From an uncultured virus (IMG/VR IMGVR_UViG_3300035696_000009) (Duplodnaviria; Heunggongvirae; Uroviricota; Caudoviricetes), in the IMG/VR virus record IMGVR_UViG_3300035696_000009: a DNA stretch of 64,000 nt; one strand, given 5' to 3'. A program made the position numbers and the translations under genes. Every line of letters begins with the position of its first letter. Position 1 is the stretch's first letter. Below, in pieces: positions 1,496-54,793 of the stretch. A model generated the notes under the pieces. That model was not told the origin of the DNA, ran no database searches, and was given only the letters and a program-made list of their open reading frames with translations.

Positions 1496-1686
1496 TGGCG
1501 CACCGTGGAGTCGGGGAGGTAGATGCAGGCCTCGGAGCCCGGGGAGCAGACGCACGTGGCGTGGAGGTGCGGCCTCTCGGGGTCGCAACCCTTCAAGCGT
1601 GGGTCACGCCTGGCCCTCGTGCAGCACCACTGCCGCATCTCCCTCCCGCAGGCGCCGCAAACGTTAACGACCGTGACGTTCATCAC
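1492..1686 (-). CDS. small Cys-rich protein
   Basis: 64 aa with 8 Cys; coupled to the polymerase stop. Confidence 0.55.
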   Translation of the reverse strand: MMNVTVVNVCGACGREMRQWCCTRARRDPRLKGCDPERPHLHATCVCSPGSEACIYLPDSTVRQ

Positions 1687-4031
1687 ATGTCGTCGAAGTT
1701 GTAGTCGACGTCGTCGTCGAAGAGGAGATCGTTCTCTTCGAGATCGCCGCCATCGGGCTGCTCCATGGCCTCAAGCTCCGCGGCCTTGAGCAGGAGCGCG
1801 TCGGGCGCGCGCTCGCCGACGGCGCGCGAGTAGGGAGCGGAGGAGACGTCGGGATCCATGGCCCTGACCGTGAGGATACCGTAGTCGGCGCCCCGGGGCC
1901 TCACGACTTTCGCGTCCCGCTTCGGCATCGGGTTGAGCGAGAGGTCCGTGGGCCGGGGGACCCAGCTTCCGTAGTTCGGCGAGCGCGTGTACGTCGGGTT
2001 CGCGGAGCTGGCGCCCGAGATCGTGATTTGGCTCTTCATGCCGCAGAACCGCTCGAGCTTGTCGTTCTCGATGTGGATCTCCTCCTTGCCCTGCGCGAAC
2101 GCGGTGGTCATCGCCTCCCACGCCTCGAACATCGCGGCGCGGCCGATGCCGCGCGCGCGGACGGTCTTCAGCTCCTCCTGGGTCGGGTTGAGCGGGAAGT
2201 AGATGCCGGGCCGCGCGAAGAAGACGCCCTTCTTCACGACCTTGCGCTCCCAGCCGCCGAGCGGTTTGTGCGCGAGGTCGCAGCCGATGGCGCCGCAGGC
2301 GGAGCACTTCTCGCCCTTCTTCTGCGCGGCCTCCGTCTCGGCGGGCGAGCGTCGTGCGTTCATCGTCCCGGTGTCCATCGGGGCCGGGGTCTTGATGTCC
2401 TCGCGGGTGTAGATGCCGTCGGTGGCGATGGAGAGCAGGTTCGAGAGGTCGTCGTGGAGCGACATCATCTCGAGGATCTGCGCGCGGCAGCCGGAGGTGA
2501 TCATGCCGGCCCAAATCCAGCTCTGGAACGGCGGGGTGCCGCCGACGCTCTGGGCGAGCTTGCCGTAGCACGAGTTGCAGCCGAGCTTGAGCGCGATGCC
2601 GGCGCCCTCCTTGCCGAGGCGGAGCCTGTTCATGTAGTAGCGCGAGATCATCCTGAACGGCTCGCACCGGCAGGGCCCGTCGAGGACCCACGCGCTCCGG
2701 AACTTGACGTACGGGAAGAGCTTCTCGCCGGCGAGGTACTCGTCGCGCCACACCCACCCGCCGCCGGACCTGTCGGGGAAGGTGATGCTGCCGTCCGCGT
2801 CGCGGTACGGGAACGGCGCCCACGGCAGCTTCTCCTTCGGCTCCTCCAGCCGGTACTGGACGAGCGCGGCCTTGGCCTTGAGCATGTCCTTCCTGCTCTT
2901 GGTCTTCGTCCAGGTGCCGTGCTCGAGGCATGGCAGGAAGCAACACTGATAGGGGTAGGCCGACGAGATGTCGAACGAGTAGACCGGCCCCTCGATCGGG
3001 CCGATCACGCTGTGCTCGAACCGGCCGCCGAAGAACGCGCTCGACACGGCCTCCTTCATCGCGTCGGGCGGCTCCTTGCGCTTCTCCTTGATGCCCATGA
3101 GGCCGAGCATGGCGGAGGCGGAGGATCCCGCGCCGTAGAAGTTCTTCAGCTCGAGGCCGGCGTCCGCGTGCGCGTCGACGAGTTTGCGCGCGAGCTGCCC
3201 GAGGTACATGCACTCGCTCCAGCAGTAGGCCTTGATGGCCTCGTCGTCGAGCCGGTCGAACTCGGAGCGCTTGTCCTTCATGACCTCGATCTGGCAGACC
3301 GGGCAGGCGGCGGAGAGGCACGGCTTGTTGTTGCTGCAGCCCTCGGCGGTGGCGACGCGCCAGTCGCGGAGCGCGACCGTGAACTTGCTCTGGTAGAACT
3401 TGAACGTGTCCCAGATGATCCGGCTCCGCGTGGCGACCTTGCCCTGGCGCGTCTTGTACCGGACCGCGACGGTGAACTTCGTTCCCTGCATGTTGAGGAG
3501 GTAGACCCTCTCGGTCCTCGGGTCCTTCCAGCGGACGGGGAAGGGCGCGGTCACCTTGCTGCCCGGCGGTCTCTGCCTGAGTTCGGGGCGGACGAGCCTG
3601 TAGAGCGCGTCGTTCGGCACGTCGGCGAGGAGCTTCGTGAGGTCGTAGTTGAACGAGAAGGCGAAGCACTTCACCGAGGCCGGCAGTTCGAGGAAGAAGT
3701 CGAGGCACGCGCTCGTGGAGAGGCCGGCGGGGTCCTCCACGCTCCAGCGGTTCTTGCCGAACTCGTCGGCGGCGCAGAGCATGACGTAGAGGTGGGGGTT
3801 CCTGCCCTTGCCCTCGCCGTCGACGCCGGCGAAGATCTCCCCCGGGGTCTCGTTCTCCTTGACCTGCTTGGCGCGCCTGCGCGGCGGGGGCCCGAGCGGC
3901 CCGAGCGGCTTGTCGGCCGGCCCCTCGATCGCCTTCTTGATCTCTTCCTGGAAGGCGACGGCGTCCTTCGCGCGTGCGATGGAGAGCTGGCGGCCGGTGA
4001 CGGGTTTCGCTTCTTTCTTGGGCTTCGACAT
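1683..4031 (-). CDS. polB: B-family DNA polymerase (protein-primed/piPolB-like), ~782 aa
   Basis: ExoI GVDGEG, ExoII FNYD, GGRFE, PolA FDISSAYP, PolB KLGCNSCYGKLAQ, PolC IATDG; start MSKPKK at a TGATG overlap. Confidence 0.92.
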   Translation of the reverse strand: MSKPKKEAKPVTGRQLSIARAKDAVAFQEEIKKAIEGPADKPLGPLGPPPRRRAKQVKENETPGEIFAGVDGEGKGRNPHLYVMLCAADEFGKNRWSVEDPAGLSTSACLDFFLELPASVKCFAFSFNYDLTKLLADVPNDALYRLVRPELRQRPPGSKVTAPFPVRWKDPRTERVYLLNMQGTKFTVAVRYKTRQGKVATRSRIIWDTFKFYQSKFTVALRDWRVATAEGCSNNKPCLSAACPVCQIEVMKDKRSEFDRLDDEAIKAYCWSECMYLGQLARKLVDAHADAGLELKNFYGAGSSASAMLGLMGIKEKRKEPPDAMKEAVSSAFFGGRFEHSVIGPIEGPVYSFDISSAYPYQCCFLPCLEHGTWTKTKSRKDMLKAKAALVQYRLEEPKEKLPWAPFPYRDADGSITFPDRSGGGWVWRDEYLAGEKLFPYVKFRSAWVLDGPCRCEPFRMISRYYMNRLRLGKEGAGIALKLGCNSCYGKLAQSVGGTPPFQSWIWAGMITSGCRAQILEMMSLHDDLSNLLSIATDGIYTREDIKTPAPMDTGTMNARRSPAETEAAQKKGEKCSACGAIGCDLAHKPLGGWERKVVKKGVFFARPGIYFPLNPTQEELKTVRARGIGRAAMFEAWEAMTTAFAQGKEEIHIENDKLERFCGMKSQITISGASSANPTYTRSPNYGSWVPRPTDLSLNPMPKRDAKVVRPRGADYGILTVRAMDPDVSSAPYSRAVGERAPDALLLKAAELEAMEQPDGGDLEENDLLFDDDVDYNFDDM

Positions 4032-4816
4032 CAGGCGGTCGCGGTCCCGAGCGACGGGGGGCTGATGCCGAGCGTGTAGATCTCGCGGGCGGTGAGCCCC
4101 GTGGCGGCGGCGATCCTGTCGTACTCGCTGTCGAACGTGCCGCGCCTGATCGCGTCGCGTATGAGCCTTTCGGCGCGCTGCCAGTCCTTCCAGGTTACCT
4201 TCACCGCGCCCGGTCTGGCGCCCTGGAGCGTGAGCCCGCGCTCGAACACCTCGCGCGGCGGGAGGCCGAGGACCTTCGCGATGACCTCCCACTCCATGAA
4301 GAACGACTTGCTCTGGATGGCCTGCTTGAGGAGCACGTCGGCCTTGGCCCAGTTCGCGCGAAGCTCCTCCATCCTCGCCCTCTCCTTCTCCTCCGCCCTC
4401 CGGGCGCGCTCCTCTTCCTTCTCGCGCCTCTCCTTCTCCTCGCGGCCGGCGGCGGCGATCCTCTCCTTGACCTCGCGCTGCTTGAGGACCTCGCGGCCGG
4501 CGGCCGAGAGGTTCTTGATGTACCGCTTCTGCACTTCGGGGGTGAGGTGGTTGCGGACGAGCGACTCGAGGATGAACGCGTCGCGCTCGGAGAGTTCCCC
4601 GGGGCGCCGGCGCGGCGCGGTCTTCTTCGCGGCCGGCTTCGCGGGTCTCTTCTTGGCGCGTTCGATGGCGGCGACGGCGCGCTCGAGCTTCTCCCTCGAG
4701 ATCGGCCGCCCGTCCTTGCGCGCGCGCCTGCCGCCGGCGTCGATCTTGATCCCGCGGCCGGCGAGCGCGCGCACGTGCCCGCGGGCGAGCGAGGCGATCG
4801 TCTTGCGCTTCTTCAC
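4031..4816 (-). CDS. basic helical protein, candidate terminal protein or DNA-binding protein
   Basis: K/R-rich with coiled coil; translationally coupled directly upstream of polB. Confidence 0.6.
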   Translation of the reverse strand: MKKRKTIASLARGHVRALAGRGIKIDAGGRRARKDGRPISREKLERAVAAIERAKKRPAKPAAKKTAPRRRPGELSERDAFILESLVRNHLTPEVQKRYIKNLSAAGREVLKQREVKERIAAAGREEKERREKEEERARRAEEKERARMEELRANWAKADVLLKQAIQSKSFFMEWEVIAKVLGLPPREVFERGLTLQGARPGAVKVTWKDWQRAERLIRDAIRRGTFDSEYDRIAAATGLTAREIYTLGISPPSLGTATA

Positions 4817-5236
4817 CGTGGCCCCTCTGGAAGAGTCGGGACGGTGTCAAGTTTAAAGCGCTTGCAATGAACGACAGAGCAGGTAAGCTTCTTGGTGCGC
4901 ATGGTTGGGATGCGCCGCCGACCAGACTTGTGAAGGAGCGCCGCCGAGGAGTCGAGACCTCAGGCGGCGCTTGGCGTTTGAGAGATTTAGAGAGCGCCCA
5001 TTCGTGCGGTCGGCAGTGGCAGGACCTCCTCATCGGGCTGGATGCCCCGACCGGCTCGCGCCGATCGCGGGGATTCAGGGCCGAGTTTTGGTTCTAACAC
5101 CGCGGCTCTGCCGCTTTCCAGAGGAAACGAGATCGTGCCGCTGCCGTGACGCAAGGGTGCGTAGGCACTGATGTATTGGGCGTGCGTGTTGCACGCAATT
5201 TTTCTGCGCTGGAAAGCCGTTGACACCAGGGGGCGG

Positions 5237-10195: not shown

Positions 10196-10251
10196 TAATA
10201 GGTGACGGGCGGTCTTCGTCGTGGCTGCTGCATTTCGACGGACCCGTCACC
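10196..10251 (+). promoter_or_regulatory. AATAGGTG element variant plus downstream hairpin
   Basis: TAATAGGTGA; inverted repeat GGTGACGGG...CCCGTCACC. Confidence 0.45.
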
Positions 10252-10304
10252 ATGAACACACAAGCCGCCCCGCGAGCTGTCCCTCAATTTATGAGGATTG
10301 CGCC

Positions 10305-17931: not shown

Positions 17932-17942
17932 AAGGAGACATC

Positions 17943-24331: not shown

Positions 24332-24609
24332 GAATGACGACGCCCCTCCTCGGCGCCGCGATCGGCGGCGGCATCGGCCTGCTCAAGCGCGACCCAGCGA
24401 AGTACGCGCTCTGGGGCGCGGGCATCGGTTTCCTAGTCACGCTCGTCGGCGGGGCGGCGGTCTCGGTGGGCGGCATCTCCGTCCGCGTCGGGGCCGACGA
24501 CGACGGGCCGCCGGAAGGGATGTTCCGGACGTGGACCGGCACGCAACCGGTCGTCGTGGAGGGGCAGACGGGTCCCGCCATCGTGGGCACCCCATACTCT
24601 TGGTACTGA
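24328..24609 (+). CDS. small membrane protein
   Basis: 2 TM; GQTGPAIVGTPYSWY. Confidence 0.75.
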   Translation: MRMTTPLLGAAIGGGIGLLKRDPAKYALWGAGIGFLVTLVGGAAVSVGGISVRVGADDDGPPEGMFRTWTGTQPVVVEGQTGPAIVGTPYSWY

Positions 24610-31332: not shown

Positions 31333-31335
31333 CCC

Positions 31336-33144: not shown

Positions 33145-33165
33145 CCTCAAGAAAAGAGAAAAATC

Positions 33166-33981: not shown

Positions 33982-34003
33982 CGATGGAGCCACCGGCCAG
34001 ACG

Positions 34004-34966: not shown

Positions 34967-34970
34967 AACC

Positions 34971-35924: not shown

Positions 35925-35935
35925 CGAGAGCTATC

Positions 35936-36805
35936 GTGACGAACAACATCTTCCCCCCGCCACCCATCATCGAGCAAGGAGTCGTGCCGGGCCAGGACTA
36001 CTGGCCCACGGTCCCTGGTTTGCCCCAGGCCGCGATCGTCGCGAACCTGATCTGGCGCCCCGGCGGGGTCGCGCGCGGCAACGTCGTGACGACGGCCGCC
36101 GCCGTGCGCGACGTTCTCAACGCGGCGCAGGGGGCCGTCAACATCTTCATCGACCCGTCTATCGCCCCCGCGAACGTGGACGTCGACTGGAACGGCTTTG
36201 GGTGCGCGAGCCTCTACCCCTTCAACGCGGGGGCCGGGTTCGTCTTCACCATCCTGGATGGATCCACCCTGCACGACTTCGCCGAGATGCAGAACCTCAC
36301 GGCCGTCTGCCAGTGCGCGACGACGCAGGCGTTCTCCTTCGACGAGTTCAGCTCGTTCCTGCTCCTCAACTTCGCCTCGATCAGCCTCGCCGCAGGCGCG
36401 CTCGTCCCGGCGATCAGGATCACGGCCGCCGACCAGAGCTTCGCGCTCTTCTCGCTCCTCGGGGCGCTCGACAACTCGAACGCGCCCACGGTCCCGGTTA
36501 TCGCGACCGACGCCGGCGCGACGACCACCATCTACCCGCACTCGGCCGCGCCAAACTTCACGTTCCTCGTCACGGGCAACGAGATCGGCGGCGGCCCGGG
36601 CTCGAGGGTCTTCTGGGAGAACGACGACACGGTCCCGCCGCTCGCGAGCGCGCTCTTCACGGGCACGTTGGTCCAGTCACCGTGCTCGGACGCGGGCAAC
36701 GCGTCGTACGAGCCCGCGAACCTCGCGAATTGGTCCGGCGTCGCACCGATGAGCGTGGCGAACGCGCTCGACCGCATCGCGGCGAAGATCGGGCCGATCC
36801 CGTAA
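35936..36805 (+). CDS. divergent ILARSP-family protein
   Basis: LIWRPGGVARGNVVTT; C-terminal ANW..P.SVANALD like 31336. Confidence 0.7.
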   Translation: MTNNIFPPPPIIEQGVVPGQDYWPTVPGLPQAAIVANLIWRPGGVARGNVVTTAAAVRDVLNAAQGAVNIFIDPSIAPANVDVDWNGFGCASLYPFNAGAGFVFTILDGSTLHDFAEMQNLTAVCQCATTQAFSFDEFSSFLLLNFASISLAAGALVPAIRITAADQSFALFSLLGALDNSNAPTVPVIATDAGATTTIYPHSAAPNFTFLVTGNEIGGGPGSRVFWENDDTVPPLASALFTGTLVQSPCSDAGNASYEPANLANWSGVAPMSVANALDRIAAKIGPIP

Positions 36806-36823
36806 GGCATTGAAAGGAAGAAC

Positions 36824-39800: not shown

Positions 39801-40024
39801 CGGGCAACGGCGCGCCTGGAGGCGGCGGAGGCCCGGGCCCGTTCGGGACGGGCGGCGCGGGAGGCAACTCGACCGCGACGGACGGCGGGGCAGGCGCCAC
39901 GCCCGCGGCGAACACGGGCGCGGGCGGGGGTGGTGGAGCCGGCGCCAACACCGGCACGAACAACGGCGGCCCGGGCGGGAGCGGCGGGTCAGGCCTGGGC
40001 AAGCTCACGATCGTCGTCCAGTGA
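36824..40024 (+). CDS. 1066-aa spike-like protein (2 ILARSP domains, DUF1565-like beta-helix, Gly-rich tail)
   Basis: YVNASGGSDVNGNGSQNFPFASIQKAL..VAPGEY; Gly-rich C-terminus. Confidence 0.8.
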   Translation: MSFESILARSPYVIYQPGGTAGGLVVTTWAQVQKFIAARQGTVIVYVDDSITSPALVPGASGITDCEGRVELRPFASDSINYTVLQIEDGATLRNLMTVNGMELRSNCQSATPSLDWTATANGPFLEFENEAILSNAATATQPAVVVPLGGTWGFFAATGFFIELNAPAVPLVSLPTATSTLNINAYANSDIPSGFVSGVGILNVVYDNTTANELQQPFVFPAQPAFTGTTQLFPFGSNPQTVGSIIYRPGAPSSGDFVATWPEVAALIKAYNGIAANSAQGTTGKFVLYVDDGTAPAHVPASSGVTDGFGRLEIRPYRPDAQNFSQLQIDAGATLKGIAKLSGTIGVIGNPTTAVPSIDFDYTANVVGTPFPTLIIEDQAVLGTAATATQPMCVVPAGNQLDVLMKDFGTIIAESTSAVFQLAAASSTLEVFARSGIFESALGGIPSTWVQGTGRFEMNFDASTAQFSNANASGAVLAPGVAFTNAGTEILFAGDGFPDNYPGTNVTVQTVYVNASGGSDVNGNGSQNFPFASIQKALGAITDASSAKKYIVAVAPGEYAGAFNVKPWVAITGMPNSSGFEGTTEITAAAGAVGLDPSFATSGYSVFWMSHLVFSNQLTLNYSALANQLIQGTFFDCNFNSGFQFIGAGTGGVDNWTLDDCLVYGGGLAQGVQFLFTIGGTQFLGGTVTIQAAPSAGATQSTTWLAQNTAVGAAFSPTNVHVLWAAPTPAVHLSALDWCNSNCVGQINLDGASAQAKIAGLRPASVIQSNGASPAVVQPLLIEMTFLTTATNVLSSLQAAGTIPTTGTMRMTLDGCGGGGGGGGGQGLAAGNGAGGGGGALYHNLGFDHNLADRLDVVVGPGGTGGTGGTPATPNGTIGNDGGPTYALDFTTNTVLASLHAASGGYFDQAAGGRGGASYPGQALYAAPSPNPALVPQHSGGLPFSSGFPASGGQAAAGGGVPGFQGQFGLVSFGVTGGGVMWAGGAGGTPVAGNGAPGGGGGPGPFGTGGAGGNSTATDGGAGATPAANTGAGGGGGAGANTGTNNGGPGGSGGSGLGKLTIVVQ

Positions 40025-40046
40025 GCAGGAATACGGAGAACCAACG

Positions 40047-42506
40047 ATGAGCCACGATTCCATCCTCGCACGGTCACCGTCGATCATCTTCCAGGCCGGC
40101 GGCGTGGCGAGCGACCTCGTCGTCACGTCCTGGGCGCAGGTCCAGAAGTTCATCGCCGCGCGCGACAGCGCGGTCATCGTGTACGTCGACGACAGCATCG
40201 CGCCGTGCAACGTCCCGGCGTCGACCGGCGTGACGGACTGCCAGGGGCGCGTTGAGATCCGCCCGCGCAGGCAGGACGGCGCGAACTTCTCGACGCTCAC
40301 CATCGACCCGGGTGCGACGCTCAAGGGCCTCTACAAGCTCTCGGGGACGATCTTCCTCCAGTGCAACCCCACGGGCGCCGTCCCCTCGCTCGACTTCGAC
40401 TACTCGGTGGGGGCCTTCGGCGACAACGCCATCCCGATCCTCTTCGTCGAGGACAACGCCGCCATCGGCACCGCGACGACGGCGACCACGCCCGCCTGCG
40501 TCGTCCCCGCGGGCCAGCAGCTCAACATGTTCATGGAGAACTTCGCCGAGGTCTTCATTCAGTCCGCCTCGGCACTCTTCAGCCTCTCCGCCGGGGCCAT
40601 CATGATCGTCTCCGCGAGAGACAGTGTCTTCGAGACGGCGACCGGCGTGATCCCGCCCACCTGGGTCCAAGGACCGGGCCGGTTCGAACTCTCGTACGAC
40701 GCTGGGACTGCAGGCTACACGAATCAGGCCGCGGGAGGGCCCGTCCTCGCCCCCGGCGTCGCCTTCACGAACGCCGGATCGGAAATCCTCGGCGCGGTCG
40801 ACGGGTTCCCCGACAGGTTCAACACCGCGTTCTTCGCCATCCAGGACCTCTACGTCAACCAGAACGGCAGCGACACGGCAGGCAACGGCACCGAGGCGTG
40901 GCCGTTCGCGACGATCCAGAAGGCGCTCTCCTCGATCACGGACGCGTCATCCGCGAAGCGGTACATCGTCCACGTCGCCCCAGGCGAGTACCCGGGAGCC
41001 TTCAACGTCAAACCGTGGGTGGCGATCACCGGGGGAGCGAACACCTCCGAGTTCGAGGGCGTCGTCGAGATCACGGCGGCGGTGAACTCGATCGGCTTTG
41101 ATCCGTCATGGGCGACGTCGGGCTTCGCGACGTTCTGGATGAGCCACCTCGTCGTCGGGAACGCCCAGACGCTCAACTACTCGGCGAGCGCGAACCAGCA
41201 CGTCCAGGGGACGTTCTTCGACTGCGACCTCAACGGCGGCATCACCATCATGGGTGCCGGCACGGGTGGCAACGACGATTGGACGTTCGACAACTGCACC
41301 ATCTACGGCGGCTTGACCGCGCAGGGCGTGAACCTGTTGATCACGATCGGCGGCACACAGTTCTTCGGCGGCACGGTGACTGTGCAGGCCGCGCCGAGCG
41401 CCGCGGCGACGAATTCCACGACATGGATCGCGCAGAACACGGCCGTCGGCGCGAACACGAACCGAACGCTCGTGCACTTGCTCTGGGGGGCACCGACGCC
41501 CGCGGTCGTCGAGGCCGTGCTCGACTGGAACAACGTGAACTGCACGGGCACGATCACCCTCGACGGCGCGAGCACGAGCGCCACCATCGCGGGCCTCCGG
41601 CCTGCGGACGTCGTGCAGGCGAACGGCGCCTCGCCGGCCGTGGTCCAACCACTCTCGATCGAACTCGTGTTCAACACGCCCGGCACCACGCTGAACGTGC
41701 TCGGTGCGCTCCAGGCAGCCGGCACGATCCCGACGACGGGCACCATCCGGATCGACTGCGAGGGCTACGGCTCGACGGGTGGTGGCGGAGGCGGCGCGGC
41801 CGGCGGGGCCGCCCCGGGATCCGGGGGCGGCGGTTCAGGCGGCGCGCTCTACCAGTTCGGGAGCTTCGACTTCAACCTCTCGCACGCCCTGAGCATCACG
41901 GTCCCGGCGGGGGGCGCAGGAGGATCGGCCGGCGTCGCACCAGCCGGGGCAGGCGGCAACGGCGTCGACGGCTCGCCCGCGTTCGCGGAGGACACGACCG
42001 CAGGGATCATCGTAGGCACGTTCACGGGCTCGAGCGCCGGCGGAGGCACTGGCGCGACGGGCGCGAACCACGGCGGCGCGAACTACGGTCCCGGCGTGTT
42101 CATCCCGAAATTGACCGACATCGCAGCGCCCTATGGGTCTGGATTCCCAGCCGGTGGAGGCCTCGGGGGCCTTCAAGCCACAAGCGGCACCGCCGGCCAA
42201 GGATCGTATTTCCAATCAGGCCCAGCGCCGCTGCCGACGGGTCGCTTCGCGGGAGGCGTTGGCGGCGCGAGCGCGGCGGGCGAGGGTGGCGGTGGCGGCG
42301 GAGGCGGCGCAGGCCCGCTCGGCTTAGCGGGGGCCGGGGGCAACGCGAACCCCGCAGGTTCGCCAGGGAGCCCGGGCGGGAACGCGAACCCGAACTCGGG
42401 CGCGGGTGCCGGCGGAGGCGCGGGTGGCTCGGGCTTGACCGACAACGGTGGCGCGGGTGGCACCGGTGATGGCGGATACTTCAAGATGCGACTCGTCGTG
42501 CAGTGA
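40047..42506 (+). CDS. 819-aa paralog of 36824
   Basis: MSHDSILARSP; YVNQNGSD..PFATIQKAL; Gly-rich tail ending VVQ. Confidence 0.8.
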   Translation: MSHDSILARSPSIIFQAGGVASDLVVTSWAQVQKFIAARDSAVIVYVDDSIAPCNVPASTGVTDCQGRVEIRPRRQDGANFSTLTIDPGATLKGLYKLSGTIFLQCNPTGAVPSLDFDYSVGAFGDNAIPILFVEDNAAIGTATTATTPACVVPAGQQLNMFMENFAEVFIQSASALFSLSAGAIMIVSARDSVFETATGVIPPTWVQGPGRFELSYDAGTAGYTNQAAGGPVLAPGVAFTNAGSEILGAVDGFPDRFNTAFFAIQDLYVNQNGSDTAGNGTEAWPFATIQKALSSITDASSAKRYIVHVAPGEYPGAFNVKPWVAITGGANTSEFEGVVEITAAVNSIGFDPSWATSGFATFWMSHLVVGNAQTLNYSASANQHVQGTFFDCDLNGGITIMGAGTGGNDDWTFDNCTIYGGLTAQGVNLLITIGGTQFFGGTVTVQAAPSAAATNSTTWIAQNTAVGANTNRTLVHLLWGAPTPAVVEAVLDWNNVNCTGTITLDGASTSATIAGLRPADVVQANGASPAVVQPLSIELVFNTPGTTLNVLGALQAAGTIPTTGTIRIDCEGYGSTGGGGGGAAGGAAPGSGGGGSGGALYQFGSFDFNLSHALSITVPAGGAGGSAGVAPAGAGGNGVDGSPAFAEDTTAGIIVGTFTGSSAGGGTGATGANHGGANYGPGVFIPKLTDIAAPYGSGFPAGGGLGGLQATSGTAGQGSYFQSGPAPLPTGRFAGGVGGASAAGEGGGGGGGGAGPLGLAGAGGNANPAGSPGSPGGNANPNSGAGAGGGAGGSGLTDNGGAGGTGDGGYFKMRLVVQ

Positions 42507-44689: not shown

Positions 44690-45163
44690 ATGATCCTGTC
44701 CGACAACACCATCCGCGACTGGCACGAGCGCTTCCCGCGCATGTCCCATATCGTCGAGGGCGCAGGGGGCGAGAAGACGTTCGGGGCCGTCCTGCAGGCC
44801 ATCGAGGTCGTCGGCGTCGCCGGCACGATGAGCTACATGAACTCACGGCACGCCGCCGCCGGCCGCCGGGCCTACGAGGTCGCCGGAGTTCCCGCTGACC
44901 TGGCGCTCGGCTTGCTCTTCTCGGGGCTCGCGACCTTCACGGGGTACTTCGGCTCGCAAGCCAGCCACGTGAACAACATCGGCTCCGGGTTCCTCTGCGC
45001 CTACGCGTGCCGCATGGGCACGATGTGGGGCAGCGCCGCGCGCGACGCGAAGGACCAAGCGCTCGCCGGCGGCGTCGTCCGCGGCGCGTTCGCACCCCCG
45101 GCGTCGCCGTATGCAGCCCAGCCCCAGCAGCAGACCGCGGGAAGCTACCCGTGGGCCGCCTGA
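44690..45163 (+). CDS. membrane protein
   Basis: GGAG RBS; hydrophobic helices; ends YPWAA. Confidence 0.8.
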   Translation: MILSDNTIRDWHERFPRMSHIVEGAGGEKTFGAVLQAIEVVGVAGTMSYMNSRHAAAGRRAYEVAGVPADLALGLLFSGLATFTGYFGSQASHVNNIGSGFLCAYACRMGTMWGSAARDAKDQALAGGVVRGAFAPPASPYAAQPQQQTAGSYPWAA

Positions 45164-45247
45164 TCCCCGCCCGAACCACAACCCACCACCGGTGAAGATC
45201 CAAAGACGATAACGAAAGAGTCGAAAAACTAGAGAAGGCGCGAGTCG

Positions 45248-45257
45248 GAATAGGTGC
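45248..45257 (+). promoter_or_regulatory. GAATAGGTGC candidate late promoter element
   Basis: 76 nt upstream of the candidate capsid gene. Confidence 0.65.
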
Positions 45258-45333
45258 CGCTTCAAGCTTTCCAAAATTTCAGGCGCGGATCCATCGTGGT
45301 TCCGCGCCCTGAGAAGAAGGAAGCGCGGTCATC

Positions 45334-46008
45334 ATGTACGAATTCGCAAATCTGGATCGAGTCGGCTACGGCGCAGCGCCGGGCGGCTACGATCGCGTGG
45401 GCTTCGGCCCGCAGCTCGTGGGAGTGCAGTCGGGCCCCGCCATCGTCGGCGCAGGACCCGCGGGCGCAGGCCCGATGATGGGCCCCGGTCCCGGCGGCCC
45501 CATGGCAGGCCCGCCCCCCGGCCACCCGGCTCACCACCGCGGTCGCCACCCGTGGGCGCCCCCCGGCTTCCCCTGGTCGCCGATCGGCTACGGCCCGTAC
45601 GGCTACGCCGCGTCGACGCCGTACCCGTACAGCGGGTACCCGCACGTGGTCAACACGCCCCCGACGCAGGTCCGCGAGTTCGTCATCGGCTTCGGCCCGA
45701 CGGTCATCCTCGCGAACTCGACTGCGATCTTCCAGGCGCAGCCGCAGCTCATCTTCCGCGGATCGCGACTCATCGTCCCGAGCGCGCTCGCGAACAACTT
45801 CTCGATCAACGACATCCGCGTCGGCAAGGACTCGCAGGCCGTGTCTGCGAACCCGATCCCCGCGGCGGCGTTCAGCGAGTTGGCCGTCGGAGTCAACCTC
45901 GGCCTCGACACCGCGACCCCGGGCATCATCATCACGATCAGCGTCTCGAACACGACGGCTGCGCAGCAGACGTTCTCGGCGGCGCTCATCGGAACCTCGA
46001 TGCAGTGA
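45334..46008 (+). CDS. candidate single-jelly-roll major capsid protein with Gly/Pro-rich leader
   Basis: ~115-aa beta-rich C-terminal domain; own promoter element; downstream hairpin; fold inferred only. Confidence 0.5.
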   Translation: MYEFANLDRVGYGAAPGGYDRVGFGPQLVGVQSGPAIVGAGPAGAGPMMGPGPGGPMAGPPPGHPAHHRGRHPWAPPGFPWSPIGYGPYGYAASTPYPYSGYPHVVNTPPTQVREFVIGFGPTVILANSTAIFQAQPQLIFRGSRLIVPSALANNFSINDIRVGKDSQAVSANPIPAAAFSELAVGVNLGLDTATPGIIITISVSNTTAAQQTFSAALIGTSMQ

Positions 46009-46015
46009 AAGGGCG

Positions 46016-46046
46016 GGCGCATTCCTCGGATTCCGAGGAGTGCGCC
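46016..46046 (+). terminator. stem-loop after the candidate capsid gene
   Basis: GGCGCATTCCTCGG-ATT-CCGAGGAGTGCGCC; second 13-bp inverted repeat at 46140-46183. Confidence 0.55.
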
Positions 46047-46238
46047 ATTGCTCGCGCATCGAGCAAGGAATCCGGTTAGGCCGTTACACTCTTTCTGCCT
46101 ACCTAGCCCCGGCCAGGGGGTCCGGATATCTGGCCCGAACGCCCGCCTCCTCTCCCCCTCATCGCGGGATGAGGAGGCGGGCGTCCTCGGTTTTAGAGCT
46201 TTGATTTTCTTCCACGGTCCGAACGCAGCGAGGTCTCC

Positions 46239-47087
46239 ATGAGTGCCGGCAAAATGGTGGCGCAGTACCCGAACCACCCGAGCGACATGTCCCCGGACGC
46301 CCCCAGGGGACCAAAGTGCAGCTCGGTGCGTTCGAGCGCCGTGCTCGGGAGCGCGCGCAAGCCGAAGGGTGAATACGCCCTGCCGTTCGCGACGCGCGAC
46401 AACGAACGCGAAGACGCACGGCTCTTCGTCGAGACGATGCCCCAGCTCCCCTGCAGGGTGACCGGCTTCTACGTCGCCGGCGAGACGTTCCAAGTCGAGC
46501 CCGAGATCGTGCTGCCCGGCCAATGGGCGCGCCTTGAGATCCCCGAGCACGTCGCGAGGAGGATCATGGCGACGACCACGGAGATCACCTGCGGCGTGCT
46601 CGCGCAGGTCGAGGGCGAGCGGGCGGGCATGATGCGGCTCCAGTGGAAGCTCCCCATGGGGGCGCACGTGGCGCGAGAGCAGGTCCCGACCGCGCTCGCC
46701 GTCCCGCCCAACTCGACGGTCATTGTCCAATGGCAGCCCGAGGTCGCGAGCCGCTTCAAGCGCTTCGCCGCCGAGATCATCGGGGACAAGGACGCTCTCT
46801 TCATCAACGACTTCCGCCTCGGCAAGGACTCGTTCTTCCTGTCGAGCACGCCCGTCCCGATGGCCGTCGCCATGGTGCCCGGCGCATTCGAGGTCCCGGA
46901 CATGATCGTCCCGGGGATCATCATGACGGTGAGCCTCTCGAACCGCTCCGCCGAGGCGGTGGAGATTGGCGGCGGGATCGTCCTCGTGAACGTCGAGGAG
47001 GAGTTCGCCGTCCTCCAGAAGAAGTACGAGGAGGAGACCCGCGCGCGCATCGAGGCGATCGAGAAGGCCGCCGAGGGGACGAAGTAG
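46239..47087 (+). CDS. paralog of the candidate capsid domain (second/minor capsid protein?)
   Basis: NSTVIVQWQP..INDFRLGKDS..PGIIMTVSLSN aligns by eye with 45334; start uncertain. Confidence 0.6.
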   Translation: MSAGKMVAQYPNHPSDMSPDAPRGPKCSSVRSSAVLGSARKPKGEYALPFATRDNEREDARLFVETMPQLPCRVTGFYVAGETFQVEPEIVLPGQWARLEIPEHVARRIMATTTEITCGVLAQVEGERAGMMRLQWKLPMGAHVAREQVPTALAVPPNSTVIVQWQPEVASRFKRFAAEIIGDKDALFINDFRLGKDSFFLSSTPVPMAVAMVPGAFEVPDMIVPGIIMTVSLSNRSAEAVEIGGGIVLVNVEEEFAVLQKKYEEETRARIEAIEKAAEGTK

Positions 47088-47090
47088 GCG

Positions 47091-47546
47091 ATGTACACGC
47101 CGAAGTTCGAACTCCTCTCGTTCTCGTCGCTGCCCGTGCAGCGAAAGCAGATCGTCCTGCGCGCGGCGCTCGAGTTCCTGATCGTCGCGGACTGGAACTA
47201 CATCATCGAGAACCCGGGGCTGCCGTCGCTCTACGAATTCGCGCCGCAGTACGTCCTCAAGGTTCGACCGTCCGGTCTGGACTCATGGCAGGATATACCT
47301 CAAACAATCGCGCTAGGTAGCGGAGATTGCAAGGATTTTGCCTGTTGGAGAATCGCGGAATTGCGCCACCAGGGCTTCGACGACGTCTACCCGCACATCA
47401 AGGTGACCTACCACCCAGACCCGCGCGGCCTCGAGCCGCCGATGACCGTCTACCACATCCAAGTGCGCATCCACGAGCAGATCGAGGACCCTTCGGCCAT
47501 CCTCGGGATGCCGCAGCACGTCACCTACGAACAGCTCCGCGGATGA
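47091..47546 (+). CDS. transglutaminase-like Cys-His-Asp enzyme (candidate maturation protease)
   Basis: GDCKD...YHIQV...EDPS. Confidence 0.75.
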   Translation: MYTPKFELLSFSSLPVQRKQIVLRAALEFLIVADWNYIIENPGLPSLYEFAPQYVLKVRPSGLDSWQDIPQTIALGSGDCKDFACWRIAELRHQGFDDVYPHIKVTYHPDPRGLEPPMTVYHIQVRIHEQIEDPSAILGMPQHVTYEQLRG

Positions 47547-47562: not shown

Positions 47563-48084
47563 ATGAGCGATCTCGGAACAATCCTCACCATCGCGGCCGT
47601 CGGCATCGGCGGCTACGCGGTGTACCGTTGGCTCGAGGACGACAAAGGCGAGCGCTGGAAGCGCCGCGAGTCGAAGAACCTTCGCGAGGCGCACGCGACG
47701 GGTTACTTCGCCGGCGTCCAGTCGGGCCCCGCGATCGTCGGGCACTACGGTTACGTGGGAGACGGCAGGACGCCCCCGCCGCCACCGGACCCACGCAACT
47801 GCCTCTGCCCGATGAGCCTCGACCCGCTCGACCCGACGCTCCCTGTCTACAAGTGCCCGTGCAACGTCCCGGGCGCGGTCCACCCGCCGTACGCCGGCTA
47901 CATGGCCGTCGGTCGCGGGGGAGGCGGGGGGCATTTCCACCCGCACCACCACTACCAGCAGCAGTTCGGCGACGAGGGCGGTGGCGGGGGCTTCGGCGGC
48001 GACGGTGGGCAGCAGCCTTTCATGCCGCCGCAGTACCAGCCGCACCCGCACTTCGGCGGGCCCCACGGCGGACGGCGGAGGTGA
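47563..48084 (+). CDS. TM-anchored low-complexity protein
   Basis: ATGYFAGVQSGPAIVGHYGYVG. Confidence 0.8.
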   Translation: MSDLGTILTIAAVGIGGYAVYRWLEDDKGERWKRRESKNLREAHATGYFAGVQSGPAIVGHYGYVGDGRTPPPPPDPRNCLCPMSLDPLDPTLPVYKCPCNVPGAVHPPYAGYMAVGRGGGGGHFHPHHHYQQQFGDEGGGGGFGGDGGQQPFMPPQYQPHPHFGGPHGGRRR

Positions 48085-48086
48085 AC

Positions 48087-49724
48087 ATGGGACCGATCCC
48101 GATCCTGATCCTCGGCGGCGTCGTCTTCTACCTCTACGAGAAGGACAAGAACCCGGCGTGGTCGCCCTTCGCCCGCCTCCTCGCGACGCCGGCCGACAAG
48201 GTCGTCGCGCTCGAGAAGGTCAAGGTGACGAGCGTGCCGACACCGAGTCCCACGGTGGCGCTCGACCCGCACATGTCGACCGACCAGGTCAAGCAGGTGA
48301 ACACCCTGCTCACGACCGAGACGGACCCGAAGAAGATCGCGGCGCACGCGGTCGCGCAGAGCGCGCTCGGCAACGAGAACAGCGCGCTCGCGCTCGCCGC
48401 GAAGGCGAACGCCGTCGGCGAGGCGATGGCGACCGGAGCCAGCGACGTCGACCTCCACAAGAAGCAGATCGAAGGGGTCGCAGCCGCCGCACCGCCGGCA
48501 GGCGCTGTCCCGATCGACTCGCCCATGACGCCGTGCGAGGCGCAGGTGCTCCTCAACGTGCTCGCGACGCGCCAGGGGCACCTCCACGTCGAGGGCGTCC
48601 CGCTGCCGCTCCCCATCACCAACGTGCTCGACGCGGAGACCGCGCACCTCATCACCATCTTCCAGGCCGAGGTGCACCTGCCGACGTCGGGGATGCTCGA
48701 CCAGGAGACCGCGAAGGCGCTCCGCATGGAGGCGCTCGGCCAAGGCGCGGCGCCCCACGTGGTCGGCTACTGGGACGAGTTCGGACGCTGGCGCCATCAT
48801 CATCACCACCACTGGCACCCGCCCGTCGTCGATGAAGTCGTCGTGCCCGAGGTTGTCGGTTACTGGGACGAGTTCGGACGCTGGCGCCACCACCATCACC
48901 ACCACTGGCACCCGCCCGTCGTCGAGGAAGTCGTCGTGCCTGAAGCCGCAGGCTGGGGACCCATCGCTACGGGCTGGAACGGCCACGAGCACGGGCGCGG
49001 GCACGAACAGTTTGGCCGCGGACACGAGCAGTTCGGCCACGGTGGACGCGGGCACGAGCAATTCGGCCACGGCCACCCACAATTCGGTCGTGGGCGTGAG
49101 CACGAACATTTTGGCCGCGGACGCGAGCACGAACATTTCGGCCGTGGTCGCGGGATGATGCCGCAGCAGGGTTTCCCGGGCGAGATGGAGGAGGAGATGC
49201 CTCCCATGCACCGTCGCCATCACCGGCGTCACCTGACGCCGGAGCAGCTCGCTGAGCAACAGCAGGCCGAGATGATGCGACACCACCACCGCCGCCACCA
49301 TCATCGGCACCCGATGCAGCAGCCGATGCAGCAGCCGCAGCCGCCGATGGACCAAGACGACCAGTCAATGGAAGCGCAGACGCCCGTCGGGATACCCATC
49401 GGCGGTGGGGGCGCGATGGCGGCGACAGCGCTACCGGGCGCCGCGGGGACCGATGCCGCCACGGACGCCGGAGCGCAAGCAGGCACCGAAGTCGCGCAAG
49501 GTTGGTGGCCCGCGCCAGGAGACGAGTATTCGTACTTCCCGCAGCAAGGGCTCCAGGGGGGCGCGTACTACCCGCCGCACGAGCCGTCGGGCGGCAGCGC
49601 CTACTACCCGATGCAGCCCACCGGCGACTACGGCGGCTACGGCTACATCGGCGAGGGCGGCCTCGGTGGGCTCGGCGGCTACGGGAGCTGGGGGAGCTTC
49701 GGCGGCTGGGGACACGGGCTCTGA
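48087..49724 (+). CDS. TM protein with PG-binding-like domain and His-rich repeats
   Basis: FQAEVHLPTSGMLDQET; two 31-aa VVGYWDEFGRWRHHHHHHW repeats. Confidence 0.8.
   Translation: MGPIPILILGGVVFYLYEKDKNPAWSPFARLLATPADKVVALEKVKVTSVPTPSPTVALDPHMSTDQVKQVNTLLTTETDPKKIAAHAVAQSALGNENSALALAAKANAVGEAMATGASDVDLHKKQIEGVAAAAPPAGAVPIDSPMTPCEAQVLLNVLATRQGHLHVEGVPLPLPITNVLDAETAHLITIFQAEVHLPTSGMLDQETAKALRMEALGQGAAPHVVGYWDEFGRWRHHHHHHWHPPVVDEVVVPEVVGYWDEFGRWRHHHHHHWHPPVVEEVVVPEAAGWGPIATGWNGHEHGRGHEQFGRGHEQFGHGGRGHEQFGHGHPQFGRGREHEHFGRGREHEHFGRGRGMMPQQGFPGEMEEEMPPMHRRHHRRHLTPEQLAEQQQAEMMRHHHRRHHHRHPMQQPMQQPQPPMDQDDQSMEAQTPVGIPIGGGGAMAATALPGAAGTDAATDAGAQAGTEVAQGWWPAPGDEYSYFPQQGLQGGAYYPPHEPSGGSAYYPMQPTGDYGGYGYIGEGGLGGLGGYGSWGSFGGWGHGL
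48759..48944 (+). repeat. 93-bp tandem duplication encoding a His6 module
   Basis: Two copies with synonymous differences. Confidence 0.85.
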
Positions 49725-53236: not shown

Positions 53237-54793
53237 ATGATCGACCGGAGCAAACCCATCGGCCACCACTGCACGGCCTGCATGCGCGGCGTCGGCCCGG
53301 ACTGGGTCCCGTCCTGCCCGCACTGCGGCGCGTCCGGCACGATCGCGGTCGGCGACGTGACCTCAACCGGCAACCGCTGGATCGGCGCGGGCCAGAAGCC
53401 GCAGCTCCTCGCGGACGTGCCGGAGGCCGACTACGAGCGCATCTCGACCGGGACGCGCGAGTTCGACCGCGTGCTCGGCGGGGGCATCGTCACGGGCTCG
53501 ACGGTGCTGATCGCGGGCGACCCGGGCATCGGCAAGAGCACGCTGCTCCTCCAGGTCTGCATCGACCTCTCGGTGGCCCCGATGACGGACGACCAGACGG
53601 GCGAGCGGATCGACGACCTCGTCATCCTCTACGTTTCGGCCGAGGAGACGACCTCGCAGATCAAGGGCCGCGCGGTCCGCCTCTCGAGGGAGTCGAAGAA
53701 GCTCTACCTCCACAACGAGTCCGACGTCACGGAGGTCGGCAAGCAGATCGCCGAGCTTGACCCGGACATCCTCATCGTGGACAGCATCCAGACCATGGTG
53801 ATGCCGGGCGTCGACGGGGCCGCCGGCACCGTGACGCAGGTGCGGGAGTGCGCGCTCTACCTCCGCGACCTCTGCAAGCGGCGCGGCATCGGCTGTTTCT
53901 TCGTGGCCCACGTGACGAAGGACGGGACCATCGCGGGCCCGAAGGTCCTCGAGCACCTCGTCGACGCGACGCTCGAGTTCCACAAGGAGGGGCTCGGAGA
54001 CATCCGCTCCATCCGCGCGAACAAGAACCGCTTCGGCTCGACGGAGGAGATGGCCCTCTTCCGGATGACCCGCGAGGGCCTGCGCTCGATCGAGAACCCG
54101 AGCGAGCTGCTCCTGCAGCACCACAAGGACGGCAAGGAGGGCGTGTGCATTGGCCTCGTCGCGACGGGCCCGCGCCCGTACGCGGTCGAGTTCCAGACGC
54201 TCCTCGGCCCGTCCTCCTCGAACGGGGCGTCGAGCGCGCAGCACAAGCGCGTGATCACGGGCCTCTCGAGCCAGCGCGCGACGCAGATCATCGCGATCCT
54301 CCAGCGGCGGCTCGGCCTGGACTTGAACCGCGAGGTCTTCGTGAACCTGCCTGGAGGCCTCGACGACGTGAAGGACCCGGCGCTCGATCTGCCGCTAGCG
54401 CTCGCCCTCGCGTCGTTCGCGCTCGGCACTGCCTTGCCCCCGTCCTTTGTCGCCTTCGGCGAGGTCGGCCTCGCGGGCGAAGTCCGCCCGGTCACGTACA
54501 TCGACGCTCGCATCAAGACCGCGATGTCGATGCACTTCGACATGATCGTGGGCCCCAGGCGCCCGTCCTACGACTTCGGGCCCGAGGCGTCACAAGCACT
54601 GGCGATGCCGCTCTCGGACGAGGAGGTGAACCTCAACGAGAGGTATTATCCCGTCACGTCGCTCGAGGAGGCGTTCGACCTGCTCGAGGGCTTCGTGATC
54701 GTGCCGCCCGAGCCCAAGCAATCGAAAATCAAGAAAGACAAACGCAAGAGCCCCCTCCGCGAGGCCGAAGAGAACGAGAGCGAGATCCAATGA
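53237..54793 (+). CDS. radA: DNA repair protein RadA/Sms
   Basis: CTAC..CPHC Zn finger, GDPGIGKST, IVDSIQ, KNRFG, GEVGLAGEVR. Confidence 0.95.
   Translation: MIDRSKPIGHHCTACMRGVGPDWVPSCPHCGASGTIAVGDVTSTGNRWIGAGQKPQLLADVPEADYERISTGTREFDRVLGGGIVTGSTVLIAGDPGIGKSTLLLQVCIDLSVAPMTDDQTGERIDDLVILYVSAEETTSQIKGRAVRLSRESKKLYLHNESDVTEVGKQIAELDPDILIVDSIQTMVMPGVDGAAGTVTQVRECALYLRDLCKRRGIGCFFVAHVTKDGTIAGPKVLEHLVDATLEFHKEGLGDIRSIRANKNRFGSTEEMALFRMTREGLRSIENPSELLLQHHKDGKEGVCIGLVATGPRPYAVEFQTLLGPSSSNGASSAQHKRVITGLSSQRATQIIAILQRRLGLDLNREVFVNLPGGLDDVKDPALDLPLALALASFALGTALPPSFVAFGEVGLAGEVRPVTYIDARIKTAMSMHFDMIVGPRRPSYDFGPEASQALAMPLSDEEVNLNERYYPVTSLEEAFDLLEGFVIVPPEPKQSKIKKDKRKSPLREAEENESEIQ

Follow-up and report, generated by a model that had tools for sequence, protein, structure and literature searches.

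The DNA stretch analysed here, referred to as the window, consists of 64,000 nucleotides assigned to an uncultured virus (IMG/VR record IMGVR_UViG_3300035696_000009). Between positions 45,334 and 47,546 it carries three adjacent genes, designated by their start positions as 45334, 46239 and 47091. 45334 is paralogous to the C-terminal half of 46239. 47091 shows an invariant Cys-His-Asp triad, and a short phi-Val-Gly (phi-VG) tag is common to 45334 and to membrane proteins encoded in the same window. The best explanation, which we give about an even chance of being correct, is that 45334 and 46239 are jelly-roll subunits of a virion and 47091 a conserved transglutaminase-fold cysteine protease, and that these proteins and the shared tag belong to an undescribed group of viruses related to the tectiviruses.

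A BLASTP alignment of 45334 with 46239 (282 aa) shows 32 identities in 83 positions (39%, E-value = 4e-11) and joins residues 128–209 of 45334 to residues 158–238 of 46239. The strings that an initial annotation of this DNA had listed as shared (NST..Q.QP, IND.R.GKDS, P.P and PGII.T.S.SN) are all visible in this alignment, which confirms the original observation; like the leader, the hairpins, the upstream 8-mer and the 47091 triad described below, this resemblance exceeds chance expectation. In addition, a hidden Markov model (HMM) of the domain matches the C-terminal domain of 46239 at 2.9e-26. The first 105 residues of 45334 form the Gly/Pro leader that had been described for it; 43% of the residues are Gly or Pro (24 G, 21 P), and there are four phi-VG sites, RVG at positions 9–11 and 21–23, LVG at 28–30 and IVG at 37–39. 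The leader is predicted to be disordered, with an AlphaFold2 predicted local distance difference test score (pLDDT) below 50 across most of residues 1–97. A regular collagen repeat is not found in the 45334 leader, and the 45334 sequence has no signal peptide. Residues 111–224 form a beta sandwich in the AlphaFold2 model (pLDDT 87–97). This domain of about 115 aa is, as modelled, a single jelly roll, in agreement with the eight-stranded fold anticipated for it.

The leader of one 45334 homologue, P0033, displays approximately eight regular Gly-X-Y triplets (GPMGPAGHIGVPGHAGPVGPMGPAGG), thus the arm appears truly collagen-like in some lineages.

46239 is likely to start at the ATG at position 46239 because the first 30 residues align with homologues, of which only 13 are found (51–67% identity). 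The family displays a G-x-VVGM sequence near the N-terminus; the window copy reads KMVAQ at this place. The AlphaFold2 model of 46239 is poor (mean pLDDT 53, from an alignment of 13 rows). A second copy of the domain in the N-terminal half of 46239 is not established, as comparison of this half with the domain gives weak signals only (BLAST E-value = 0.055; hhalign probability 15.8%; 0.4–4.4 bits).

The phi-VG tag is real and old. A 10-residue form of it, GVQSGPAIVG, is identical in 45334 and 47563, and homologues of 47563 in three other loci retain the tag. It is also present close to the C-terminus of the small membrane protein 24337; the 24337–24609 frame is coding from about 24385 (G+C content at third codon positions, GC3, of 0.92), with a putative start codon. 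Membrane proteins of the 48090 type show two to five tandem QSGPAIVG units in five loci, and distant relatives of 44690 carry GGPELVG in the C-terminal tail. The tag is found on at least one protein besides the jelly-roll protein in 10 of 14 close loci. Of the 129 family representatives whose leader has 20 residues or more, 65 carry [ILV]VG in it, where 12.9 are expected from shuffled leaders, and the number of motifs is 105 (13.5 expected). The consensus of the wider family is [DE][IL]VG[AGD][DE], often in tandem and often situated within the first 10–40 residues.

The 47091 sequence shows the Cys-His-Asp order that had been read from it. Cys80, His122 and Asp133 are invariant in 26/26 aligned relatives, as are D79, D82, A89, E90, V125, P134, S135, L138, G139 and M140. 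47091 itself gives no Pfam match at an E-value of 1 or better. Transglut_core matches five of the 26 relatives (best 5.8e-4), and two more distant relatives score above the cut-off of that family (23 bits), P0301 with 25.0 bits and P0307 with 29.5 bits. Peptidase_C93 (PF06035) matches one of the 26 at E = 0.13; the best score with that family is the 17 bits of P0279, against a cut-off of 27. A search of PDB sequences with the 47091 profile places LapG first (4fgo, E-value = 0.12; 4u65_E, 0.4), the similarity lying over the W...G.GDCEDFA stretch. Language-model look-alikes of 47091 in the Atlas are transglutaminase-like and BTLCP clusters, found mostly on viral-labelled contigs. The family has 1118 members at E-values of 1e-5 or better. 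The N-terminus, MYTPKFELLSFSSLPVQRKQ, contains no hydrophobic signal segment. The triad and the membership of 47091 in the transglutaminase-like superfamily are supported by these similarities, and the nearest characterised relatives appear to be LapG-type proteases and not cross-linking enzymes, so that 47091 is a predicted protease. The earlier label of a transglutaminase-like enzyme holds for triad and superfamily, and the activity is more probably that of a protease.

Inteins (Intein_splicing/Hint) start at residue 80, the catalytic Cys, in four loci (L017:780–1628, L018:11366–12847, L019:11056–12204 and L025:386–1258) and also in P0388.

A true transglutaminase would act differently, by cross-linking particle proteins through the Gln of VQSGP and a Lys, and would thereby harden the shell. 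Transglut_core is the best Pfam signal, and in the window clade a conserved Gln of the tag is flanked by flexible Gly/Pro sequence. A possible acceptor is the C-terminal Lys of 46239 (Lys282, codon 47082–47084), which is terminal in 13/13 members of that family and follows a conserved LQKKYEEE helix. However, most of the wider family lacks this Gln in its tag, as the consensus given above shows. The closest solved relatives by profile are the LapG proteases, and many loci lack 46239. Cross-linking is thus quite improbable, and a protease that cuts is the preferred reading of 47091.

Two functions could be considered for the tag. It could be a cut site, its form recalling the sites of adenovirus protease and the double-glycine sites, or it could dock on the barrel as a short strand, as do the N-termini of VP7 and VP9 and the spike strands in HHIV-2 and HCIV-1. 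Cutting is favoured because the cysteine enzyme is invariably linked. Docking is favoured because the tags sit at the tips of long arms and in C-terminal tails; the phi-VG tags at the arm tip are some 70 residues from the domain and others lie near C-termini, which suits docking over removal of a propeptide. In the AlphaFold2 monomer of 45334 the tag-bearing leader has no confident placement on the domain. Thus, of the cleavable scaffold-like leader in the initial annotation, the conserved and over-represented tag stands, and docking is a second reading of what the tag does.

The conservation of the gene group was followed in 79 metagenome loci and one locus from a metagenome-assembled genome (MAG) (n = 80). 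One of these, L002, is 100% identical to the window, and by its coordinates the window appears to start approximately 645 bp from the end of the 218,816-bp L002 contig. In tblastn searches 57 of the 80 loci have a 47091-type gene directly downstream of the jelly-roll gene, with gaps of 6–1330 bp and at identities down to 30%. If the count is restricted to the 46 loci that offer 1.8 kb or more of downstream sequence, the gene is present in 41 (L048 and L057 included), even at 30–46% identity, and lacking in L058, L060, L064, L077 and L080. Upstream, relatives of 44690 lie just before the jelly-roll gene in 30 of the 80 loci (31 at E-value 1e-4), at identities reaching 27–35%; 44690 has no Pfam or PHROG match. 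Between loci, the jelly-roll domain is 84–100% identical and 47091 is 72–97% identical, as against 35–65% for fibre-like and membrane genes, and the jelly-roll gene is the best-conserved gene of the block.

Signals that could control 45334 are found on both sides of the gene. Thirteen aligned orthologous upstream regions have conserved blocks in common, and TAGGTGCCGC..AGCTTTCC is present in the upstream regions of six loci. The 8-mer AATAGGTG occurs four times in the window with 0.18 expected, and none of 100 shuffles reaches four. All four copies are on the plus strand, at 10197, 13685, 29568 and 45249, upstream of 10221, 13690, 29650 and 45334 respectively, and therefore suggest a small set of co-regulated, probably late, genes. 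AATAGGTG is a candidate for a shared late promoter core. Only this 8-mer core is over-represented; GGAATAGGTGCCGC with up to three mismatches is not above chance (8 vs 6.9). A sigma-70 consensus scan shows no site upstream of 45334. The promoter element attributed to 45334 thus survives as conserved blocks and an over-represented 8-mer but not as a sigma-70 consensus site.

On the 3′ side, where a hairpin had been reported, there are two strong ones after the stop codon of 45334. The first (46011–46053) has a delta G = −33.6 kcal/mol and z = −6.0; the second (46135–46190) has a delta G = −44.5 kcal/mol and z = −5.2 and is followed by a U-rich run. In neither case do any of 200 shuffles fold as well. 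Most loci show a strong hairpin within 220 nt past the stop codon of the jelly-roll gene. The hairpin arms co-vary in three loci (L009, L019 and L020), and T-runs are found in distant loci. A strong terminator and an upstream element of its own together suggest very high expression of the jelly-roll gene. The pattern of a conserved jelly-roll gene, a hairpin and then an enzyme gene is one expected for an abundant structural subunit and a less abundant enzyme.

This high predicted expression also bears on the possibility that the block is a lysis or envelope cassette, with 44690 as a holin-like protein, 47091 as a peptidoglycan endopeptidase, the jelly rolls as wall-binding modules and the membrane and PG_binding_1 proteins as spanin-like components. 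Transglutaminase-fold endoisopeptidases exist in methanogen viruses. The block lies after the fibre genes, a frequent place for lysis genes, PG_binding_1 domains are present in 26048, 42832, 50483 and 51006, and carbohydrate- and collagen-binding jelly-roll modules are among the structural matches, with tandem domain arrays in the family. However, the predicted very high expression of the jelly-roll gene and its conservation, the best of the block, speak against such a cassette, 45334 lacks a signal peptide, and the closest matches of the enzyme are LapG-type proteases and not lysins. A lysis cassette is thus very improbable, and structural subunits with a processing protease remain the favoured reading of the block.

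The replication gene of the element points, by similarity, to a large virus or provirus related to tailless membrane-containing phages. The window is about 68% G+C, and GC3 shows a single run of plus-strand genes from approximately 6 to 58 kb. The polymerase (1683–5033) lies in a minus-strand left arm, by coordinates about 2.3 kb from the apparent contig end, and matches DNA_pol_B_2 (1.8e-8) and phrog_11768 (1.2e-29). In 50,697 GenBank phage records its relatives are confined to 15 phages of Microbacterium, Streptomyces, Rhodococcus and Vibrio, the closest being actinobacterial phages such as Toil, and the identity to the polymerase of the tectivirus Toil, a Rhodococcus phage, is 29% over 501 aa (E-value = 1.3e-40). 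A strict search of the incomplete relative genome G001 did not find the polymerase. Seven distant loci carry phage-type genes (DUF5131, Dam, NADAR, QueD, collagen tail-fibre-like and LysM endolysin genes). The protein-primed polymerase and these genes support the viral setting that had been assumed for the block. Other family matches in the window are few, are weak or below cut-off and give no informative assignment, and many small membrane proteins surround the 45334–47546 block. The RadA/Sms-like ATPase at 53237 scores 380.3 bits with TIGR00416, which is below the cut-off of 403, and 6.8e-87 with phrog_26214. Its gene is syntenic in 14 loci and adjoins the jelly-roll gene in distant L058; as this is the only ATPase of the element, a role in DNA packaging is conceivable.

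Table 1. Coordinates of the features discussed in the window
Position	Strand	Feature
1683..5033	-	protein-primed family B polymerase
24337..24609	+	small membrane protein ending ...EGQTGPAIVGTPYSWY; GQTGPAIVG six residues from the C-terminus
44690..45163	+	157 aa: three hydrophobic segments, YPWAA tail; conserved neighbour upstream of the jelly-roll gene
45164..45333	+	control region upstream of 45334 (170-bp gap): AATAGGTG at 45249–45256, conserved stem-loop, GAAGAAGGAAG ribosome-binding stretch
45334..46008	+	224 aa: disordered Gly/Pro leader (nt 45334–45648) and C-terminal jelly-roll domain (nt 45646–46005)
45421..45450	+	GVQSGPAIVG tag, residues 30–39 of the 45334 leader
46011..46215	+	two hairpins, then U-rich run; terminator or attenuator after the jelly-roll gene
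46239..47087	+	282 aa: short leader, beta-rich N-terminal half (residues ~40–125), jelly-roll domain (nt 46695–47003), C-terminal helix
47091..47546	+	151-aa transglutaminase-fold cysteine enzyme, LapG/BTLCP-like; Cys80 codon 47328–47330, His122 47454–47456, Asp133 47487–47489
47563..48084	+	173 aa: N-terminal membrane helix, GVQSGPAIVG tag (residues 51–60, nt 47713–47742), Gly/His/Pro-rich tail
53237..54793	+	RadA/Sms-like ATPase (RecA-type ATPase and Lon-like domain)

From these features the following scheme may be drawn for an element from a peat metagenome. 45334 and 46239 would be paralogous single-jelly-roll structural proteins of the particle of an uncultured bacterial virus or provirus of at least about 58 kb, whose host is probably a member of the Thermoanaerobaculia (Acidobacteriota). 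The virus is probably tailless and membrane-containing and would replicate by its tectivirus-like protein-primed polymerase. 45334 would be the abundant conserved subunit, expressed from its own upstream element, with a terminator that insulates the downstream genes. Its barrel of about 115 aa would build the shell or a vertex (penton-type), and its flexible Gly/Pro arm of about 105 aa would present phi-VG tags at the tip, a tag common to several viral membrane proteins. 47091 would be a minimal LapG-like cysteine protease, produced by read-through in smaller amounts. Most likely it recognises the tagged proteins and trims them while the particle is assembled, in a maturation or release step.

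The domain structure was compared by VIA-align (VIA) with 48,161 representative chains. Single-jelly-roll capsid proteins align over 102–111 of the approximately 115 residues of the 45334 domain with a root-mean-square deviation (rmsd) of 2.6–3.1 Å. Three matches reach Z = 8, two of them viral chains, HHIV-2 chain 6h82_b and SPV1 capsid chain 6oj0_T (Z = 8.5, rmsd 2.6 Å, 111 aa), and the third a GOLD domain. The HHIV-2 chain is the top match (Z = 8.7) but has an rmsd of 6.3 Å. Lower scores are given by HCIV-1 VP4 (6h9c_Z; Z = 7.4, rmsd 3.1 Å, 107 aa), the STIV turret protein (Z = 7.3), nanovirus and satellite-virus capsids (Z = 6.7–7.3), P23-77 VP17 (3zmn_A; Z = 6.4) and PRD1 P3 (Z = 6.2). Jelly-roll carbohydrate- and collagen-binding modules are also among the VIA matches. 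The C-terminal domain of 46239 gives generic matches only, the best to a GOLD domain (Z = 7.4). In the published description of HHIV-2 the subunits of the major capsid proteins (MCPs) are labelled A–X and a, and the penton protein is disordered over residues 1–40 (PMC6414509). Penton protein VP9 is the most likely identity of chain b, because this chain stands outside these MCP labels and is modelled from residue 39. Weak Foldseek rows in the PDB are jelly-roll proteins (furin P domain, nucleoplasmin, IBDV VP2, RDV P8). Foldseek of BFVD gives 11 matches at E-values of 1e-3 or better, mostly collagen-like proteins with large rmsd, which are read as alignments to the Gly/Pro leader.

The initial annotation had taken the block to be a sphaerolipovirus-type capsid module with two MCPs. 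In this case 45334 and 46239 would be the small and large MCPs, forming heterodimers of vertical single jelly rolls as in the Helvetiavirae, and the leader would be a cleavable scaffold. Two adjacent jelly-roll genes of 224 and 282 aa, the small membrane proteins downstream, as in those viruses, and the VIA matches to HCIV-1 VP4, P23-77 VP17 and SPV1 all agree with such a module, and the VP7 N-terminus is described as defining the heterodimer in HHIV-2 (PMC6414509). At least two copies of the domain are present in 22 loci; other lineages have two tandem 45334-type genes (e.g. L029, L039, L048 and L051), and a further copy is found about 8 kb away in L001, L018 and L022. However, genes of the 46239 type are present in 7 close loci only, and the HMM finds a single domain copy within ±10 kb in seven loci (L007, L009, L010, L013, L014, L019 and L020). 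No A32/FtsK-type ATPase is found beside the genes or elsewhere in the window. The solved MCPs are unmatched by sequence or profile: searches of PDB sequences with 45334, 46239 and the domain profile give no match, VP16/VP17 and VP4/VP7 included. The best-scoring HHIV-2 chain is probably a penton and not an MCP, and the polymerase points to tectivirus-like viruses, which have double jelly rolls. A heterodimer prediction for the 45334 domain with residues 40–282 of 46239 gave a median score of 0.22 vs a mark of 0.32, which counts neither for nor against the pairing. Thus the jelly rolls and the paralogy of the proposed module stand, and its pairing of two MCPs appears rather unlikely.

The preferred reading, of virion subunits with a protease partner, is weakened by several results in addition to the position of the tags. 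The GOLD domain scores Z = 8.4, PHM scores Z = 7.7–7.9, and, when the best 1000 chains of Foldseek are re-scored, turret chain 8qpg_TD of the tailed archaeal virus HFTV1 gives Z = 8.0 and a baseplate domain of phage KP1 gives Z = 7.8. A best Z of 7–8 is usual for models without a true match, and Foldseek finds no PDB match for 45334 at E-values of 1e-3 or better. The fold alone assigns no capsid role because GOLD, PHM and phage decoration domains score alike (Z = 7.3–8.7); comparison with P23-77 and the other MCPs, from which the initial annotation had expected a distinction, does not separate capsid proteins from these domains. An FtsK/HerA (A32-like) packaging ATPase was not found by six-frame Walker-A scan, Pfam, PHROG or NCBIfam, and high-GC3 frames of the window encode just two Walker-A proteins, the RadA-like one and an ABC ATPase of the flank. 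10221–11573 (450 aa, beta-rich) is a candidate for another capsid protein, e.g. one with a double jelly roll. Some family members have an N-terminal membrane helix in place of the Gly/Pro leader, and others have two to four tandem domains after a signal-like start, a pattern that would suit a binding module or adhesin as well. The 29650–42506 stretch encodes seven fibre- or spike-like proteins, and the Atlas look-alikes are mostly labelled Uroviricota, so that a tailed phage has to be considered.

In a tailed phage the jelly-roll proteins would be accessory, either a head decoration or turret or a distal fibre knob on a Gly/Pro stalk, and the head and tail genes would lie outside the window or be too diverged. 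The HFTV1 turret and KP1 baseplate scores, the many fibre-like genes upstream, the collagen tail-fibre genes of L048, the real Gly-X-Y run in the P0033 leader and the Uroviricota look-alikes fit such a role, and BFVD pairs leader and domain with collagen-like fibre proteins. However, no terminase, portal or HK97 capsid family is found in the window open reading frames searched (about 58 kb) or in 148 open reading frames of the seven distant loci, and no tube, sheath or tape-measure family in the same 58 kb or in these seven relatives of 14–20 kb. The domain is far more conserved than the adjoining fibres, unlike receptor-binding tips, and the 45334 leader is not a regular collagen repeat. In addition, tblastn of the 50,697 GenBank phage records gives no match for 45334, 47091 or 10221. 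An accessory role in a tailed phage is therefore unlikely, and the weight stays with subunits of a probably tailless virion.

The jelly-roll family is large. 45334 has 117 homologues, one in a MAG labelled Thermoanaerobaculia, on contigs of up to 763 kb; in the close homologues the domain is 84–98% conserved, and the domain profile matches 3862 clusters at E-values of 1e-3 or better and 1795 at 1e-10 or better among 1.84 billion representatives. Of 273 domain-bearing proteins, 246 have one copy, 23 have two, two have three and two have four. The domain ends within 12 residues of the C-terminus in 217 of the 273. A member with four tandem domains shows a signal-like segment at its start. None of 45 larger domain representatives scanned contains a Pfam family, and the jelly-roll family appears, from these scans, to be without a Pfam or PHROG model. 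A pattern scan of IMG/VR gave 36 pattern matches, none confirmed, and searches of the two virus collections (GenBank phages and IMG/VR) returned no pair of jelly-roll and cysteine-enzyme genes. A search of the literature, mostly at the level of titles and abstracts, found no description of this protein pair.

Several proteins elsewhere in the block show repeats or shared ends. GPSNAN-type repeats are present in 29650. An N-terminal domain is common to 31336, 36824 and 40047, of which 36824 and 40047 have long Gly-rich C-terminal regions. 33166, 34004 and 34971 share the start MSLFSRIAG..FFQ.GGPGG. 48090–49724 contains the His-rich direct repeat VVGYWDEFGRWRHHHHHHWHPPVV twice and also GHEQFGRG-type repeats. 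17211–20663 shows an internal duplication, one copy of which starts MYEFAGAGPCPFPG; its first five residues (MYEFA) are as in 45334. Short Trp/Tyr-rich tails terminate at least ten proteins of the block (NWW, PWWV, YSWW, YSWY, YPWSY, FGPW, WCYY, YPWAA, RRWW and FRRW, on genes ending at 20663, 22728, 23486, 24609, 25158, 27223, 44520, 45163, 52308 and 52659). These tails look like a second shared terminal signature.

No convincing terminal inverted repeats are found in the window, and the window open reading frames scanned include no integrase; tRNA genes are also not found. Four short-read assemblies all break inside the ABC ATPase gene, at 61567–61652. Depths to the left and right of the break are 22–26 and 13.9 (X1), 154–168 and 137–140 (X2), 98–110 and 86–87 (X5), and 7.6–9.3 and 6.5–6.8 (X6). 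The link of the element to the cellular-looking flank is therefore not independently bridged, and the copy numbers of element and flank may differ.

A wider proposal is made only tentatively. The loci could represent a large undescribed group of tailless soil and peat viruses with jelly-roll shells or vertices, an arm tag of the form [DE][IL]VG common to their membrane proteins, a LapG-like maturation protease, a tectivirus-like polymerase and a hexameric ATPase of the RadA type as the sole ATPase. The RadA-type ATPase could be a stand-in for the missing FtsK-type packaging motor. If this is true, part of the soil viral dark matter would receive a name, along with a widespread family of jelly-roll particle proteins, and a new protease fold would join the few known virion maturation enzymes. 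The pair of jelly-roll and cysteine-enzyme genes would then be a handle for finding tailless viruses of Acidobacteria. The family, with its single, paired and tandem-fused forms, would also bear on the origin of double-barrel capsid proteins from single barrels.

Among known systems, the predicted protease is most like LapG/BTLCP (peptidase C93, PF06035, in the PF01841 superfamily), with which 47091 has the Cys-His-Asp order and the GDCEDFA stretch in common. LapG is periplasmic and cuts a short motif near the N-terminus of a protein, which is thereby released from a membrane-held state; in LapA the cut is at a di-alanine site. The candidate motif here is instead [DE][IL]VG, and 47091 is below the family cut-offs, has only 151 aa, is virus-encoded and lacks a signal peptide. 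Adenain cuts sites of the phi-x-Gly-Gly type, and C39 peptidases cut double-glycine leaders. These enzymes resemble the present system in that a short hydrophobic-x-Gly-(Gly/Ala) signal is found on several putative particle proteins together with a viral, predicted cysteine protease. However, 47091 is transglutaminase-like and belongs neither to clan CE nor to C39, and the tags here are often in tandem and may sit in C-terminal tails. We know of no virion maturation role described for a transglutaminase- or LapG-like fold.

The jelly rolls are most like those of a group of membrane-containing viruses (VP4, VP7 and VP9 of HHIV-2 and HCIV-1, VP16/VP17 of P23-77, and SPV1), which supply the top VIA matches and also have a small eight-stranded jelly roll. 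Side-by-side paralogous jelly-roll genes amid genes for membrane proteins are a second likeness. However, there is no similarity by sequence or profile, and the Z values are in the background range. In the Helvetiavirae (Sphaerolipoviridae and Matshushitaviridae) the barrels stand upright in pseudo-hexameric capsomers over an inner membrane. The two MCP genes of these viruses are always paired and an FtsK/HerA ATPase gene lies beside them, whereas here the second paralogue is not universal and no such ATPase is found in the window. Sphaerolipovirus genomes are given as about 30 kbp in the ICTV profile, and the element here is at least about 58 kb. In HHIV-2 and HCIV-1 short N-terminal segments clamp neighbouring subunits, with VP7 N-terminal residues defining the HHIV-2 heterodimer, and strands of the spike protein dock on the penton barrel (PMC6414509). 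We are not aware of a description, for these viruses, of either the long tagged Gly/Pro arm or the transglutaminase-fold partner seen here.

Similarity to the tectivirus Toil is limited to the polymerase, the only one of the 35 Toil proteins that matches the window; counterparts of the Toil ATPase and double-barrel coat protein are not found by sequence, the element exceeds Toil more than threefold in size, and the Toil record lists no transglutaminase-fold enzyme. The arrangement, though, is alike: as in the linear Toil genome, the polymerase is situated within a few kb of the apparent end, in a left arm on the minus strand, with plus-strand late genes after it. As in the Tectiviridae, LysM or PG-binding proteins and lytic enzymes are found among the late genes. 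In PRD1, P31 and the N-terminal domain of P5 are paralogous jelly rolls of the vertex. In size and fold the 45334 domain would suit a penton protein, and the chain that gives its top VIA match is probably the HHIV-2 penton, but at an rmsd of 6.3 Å.

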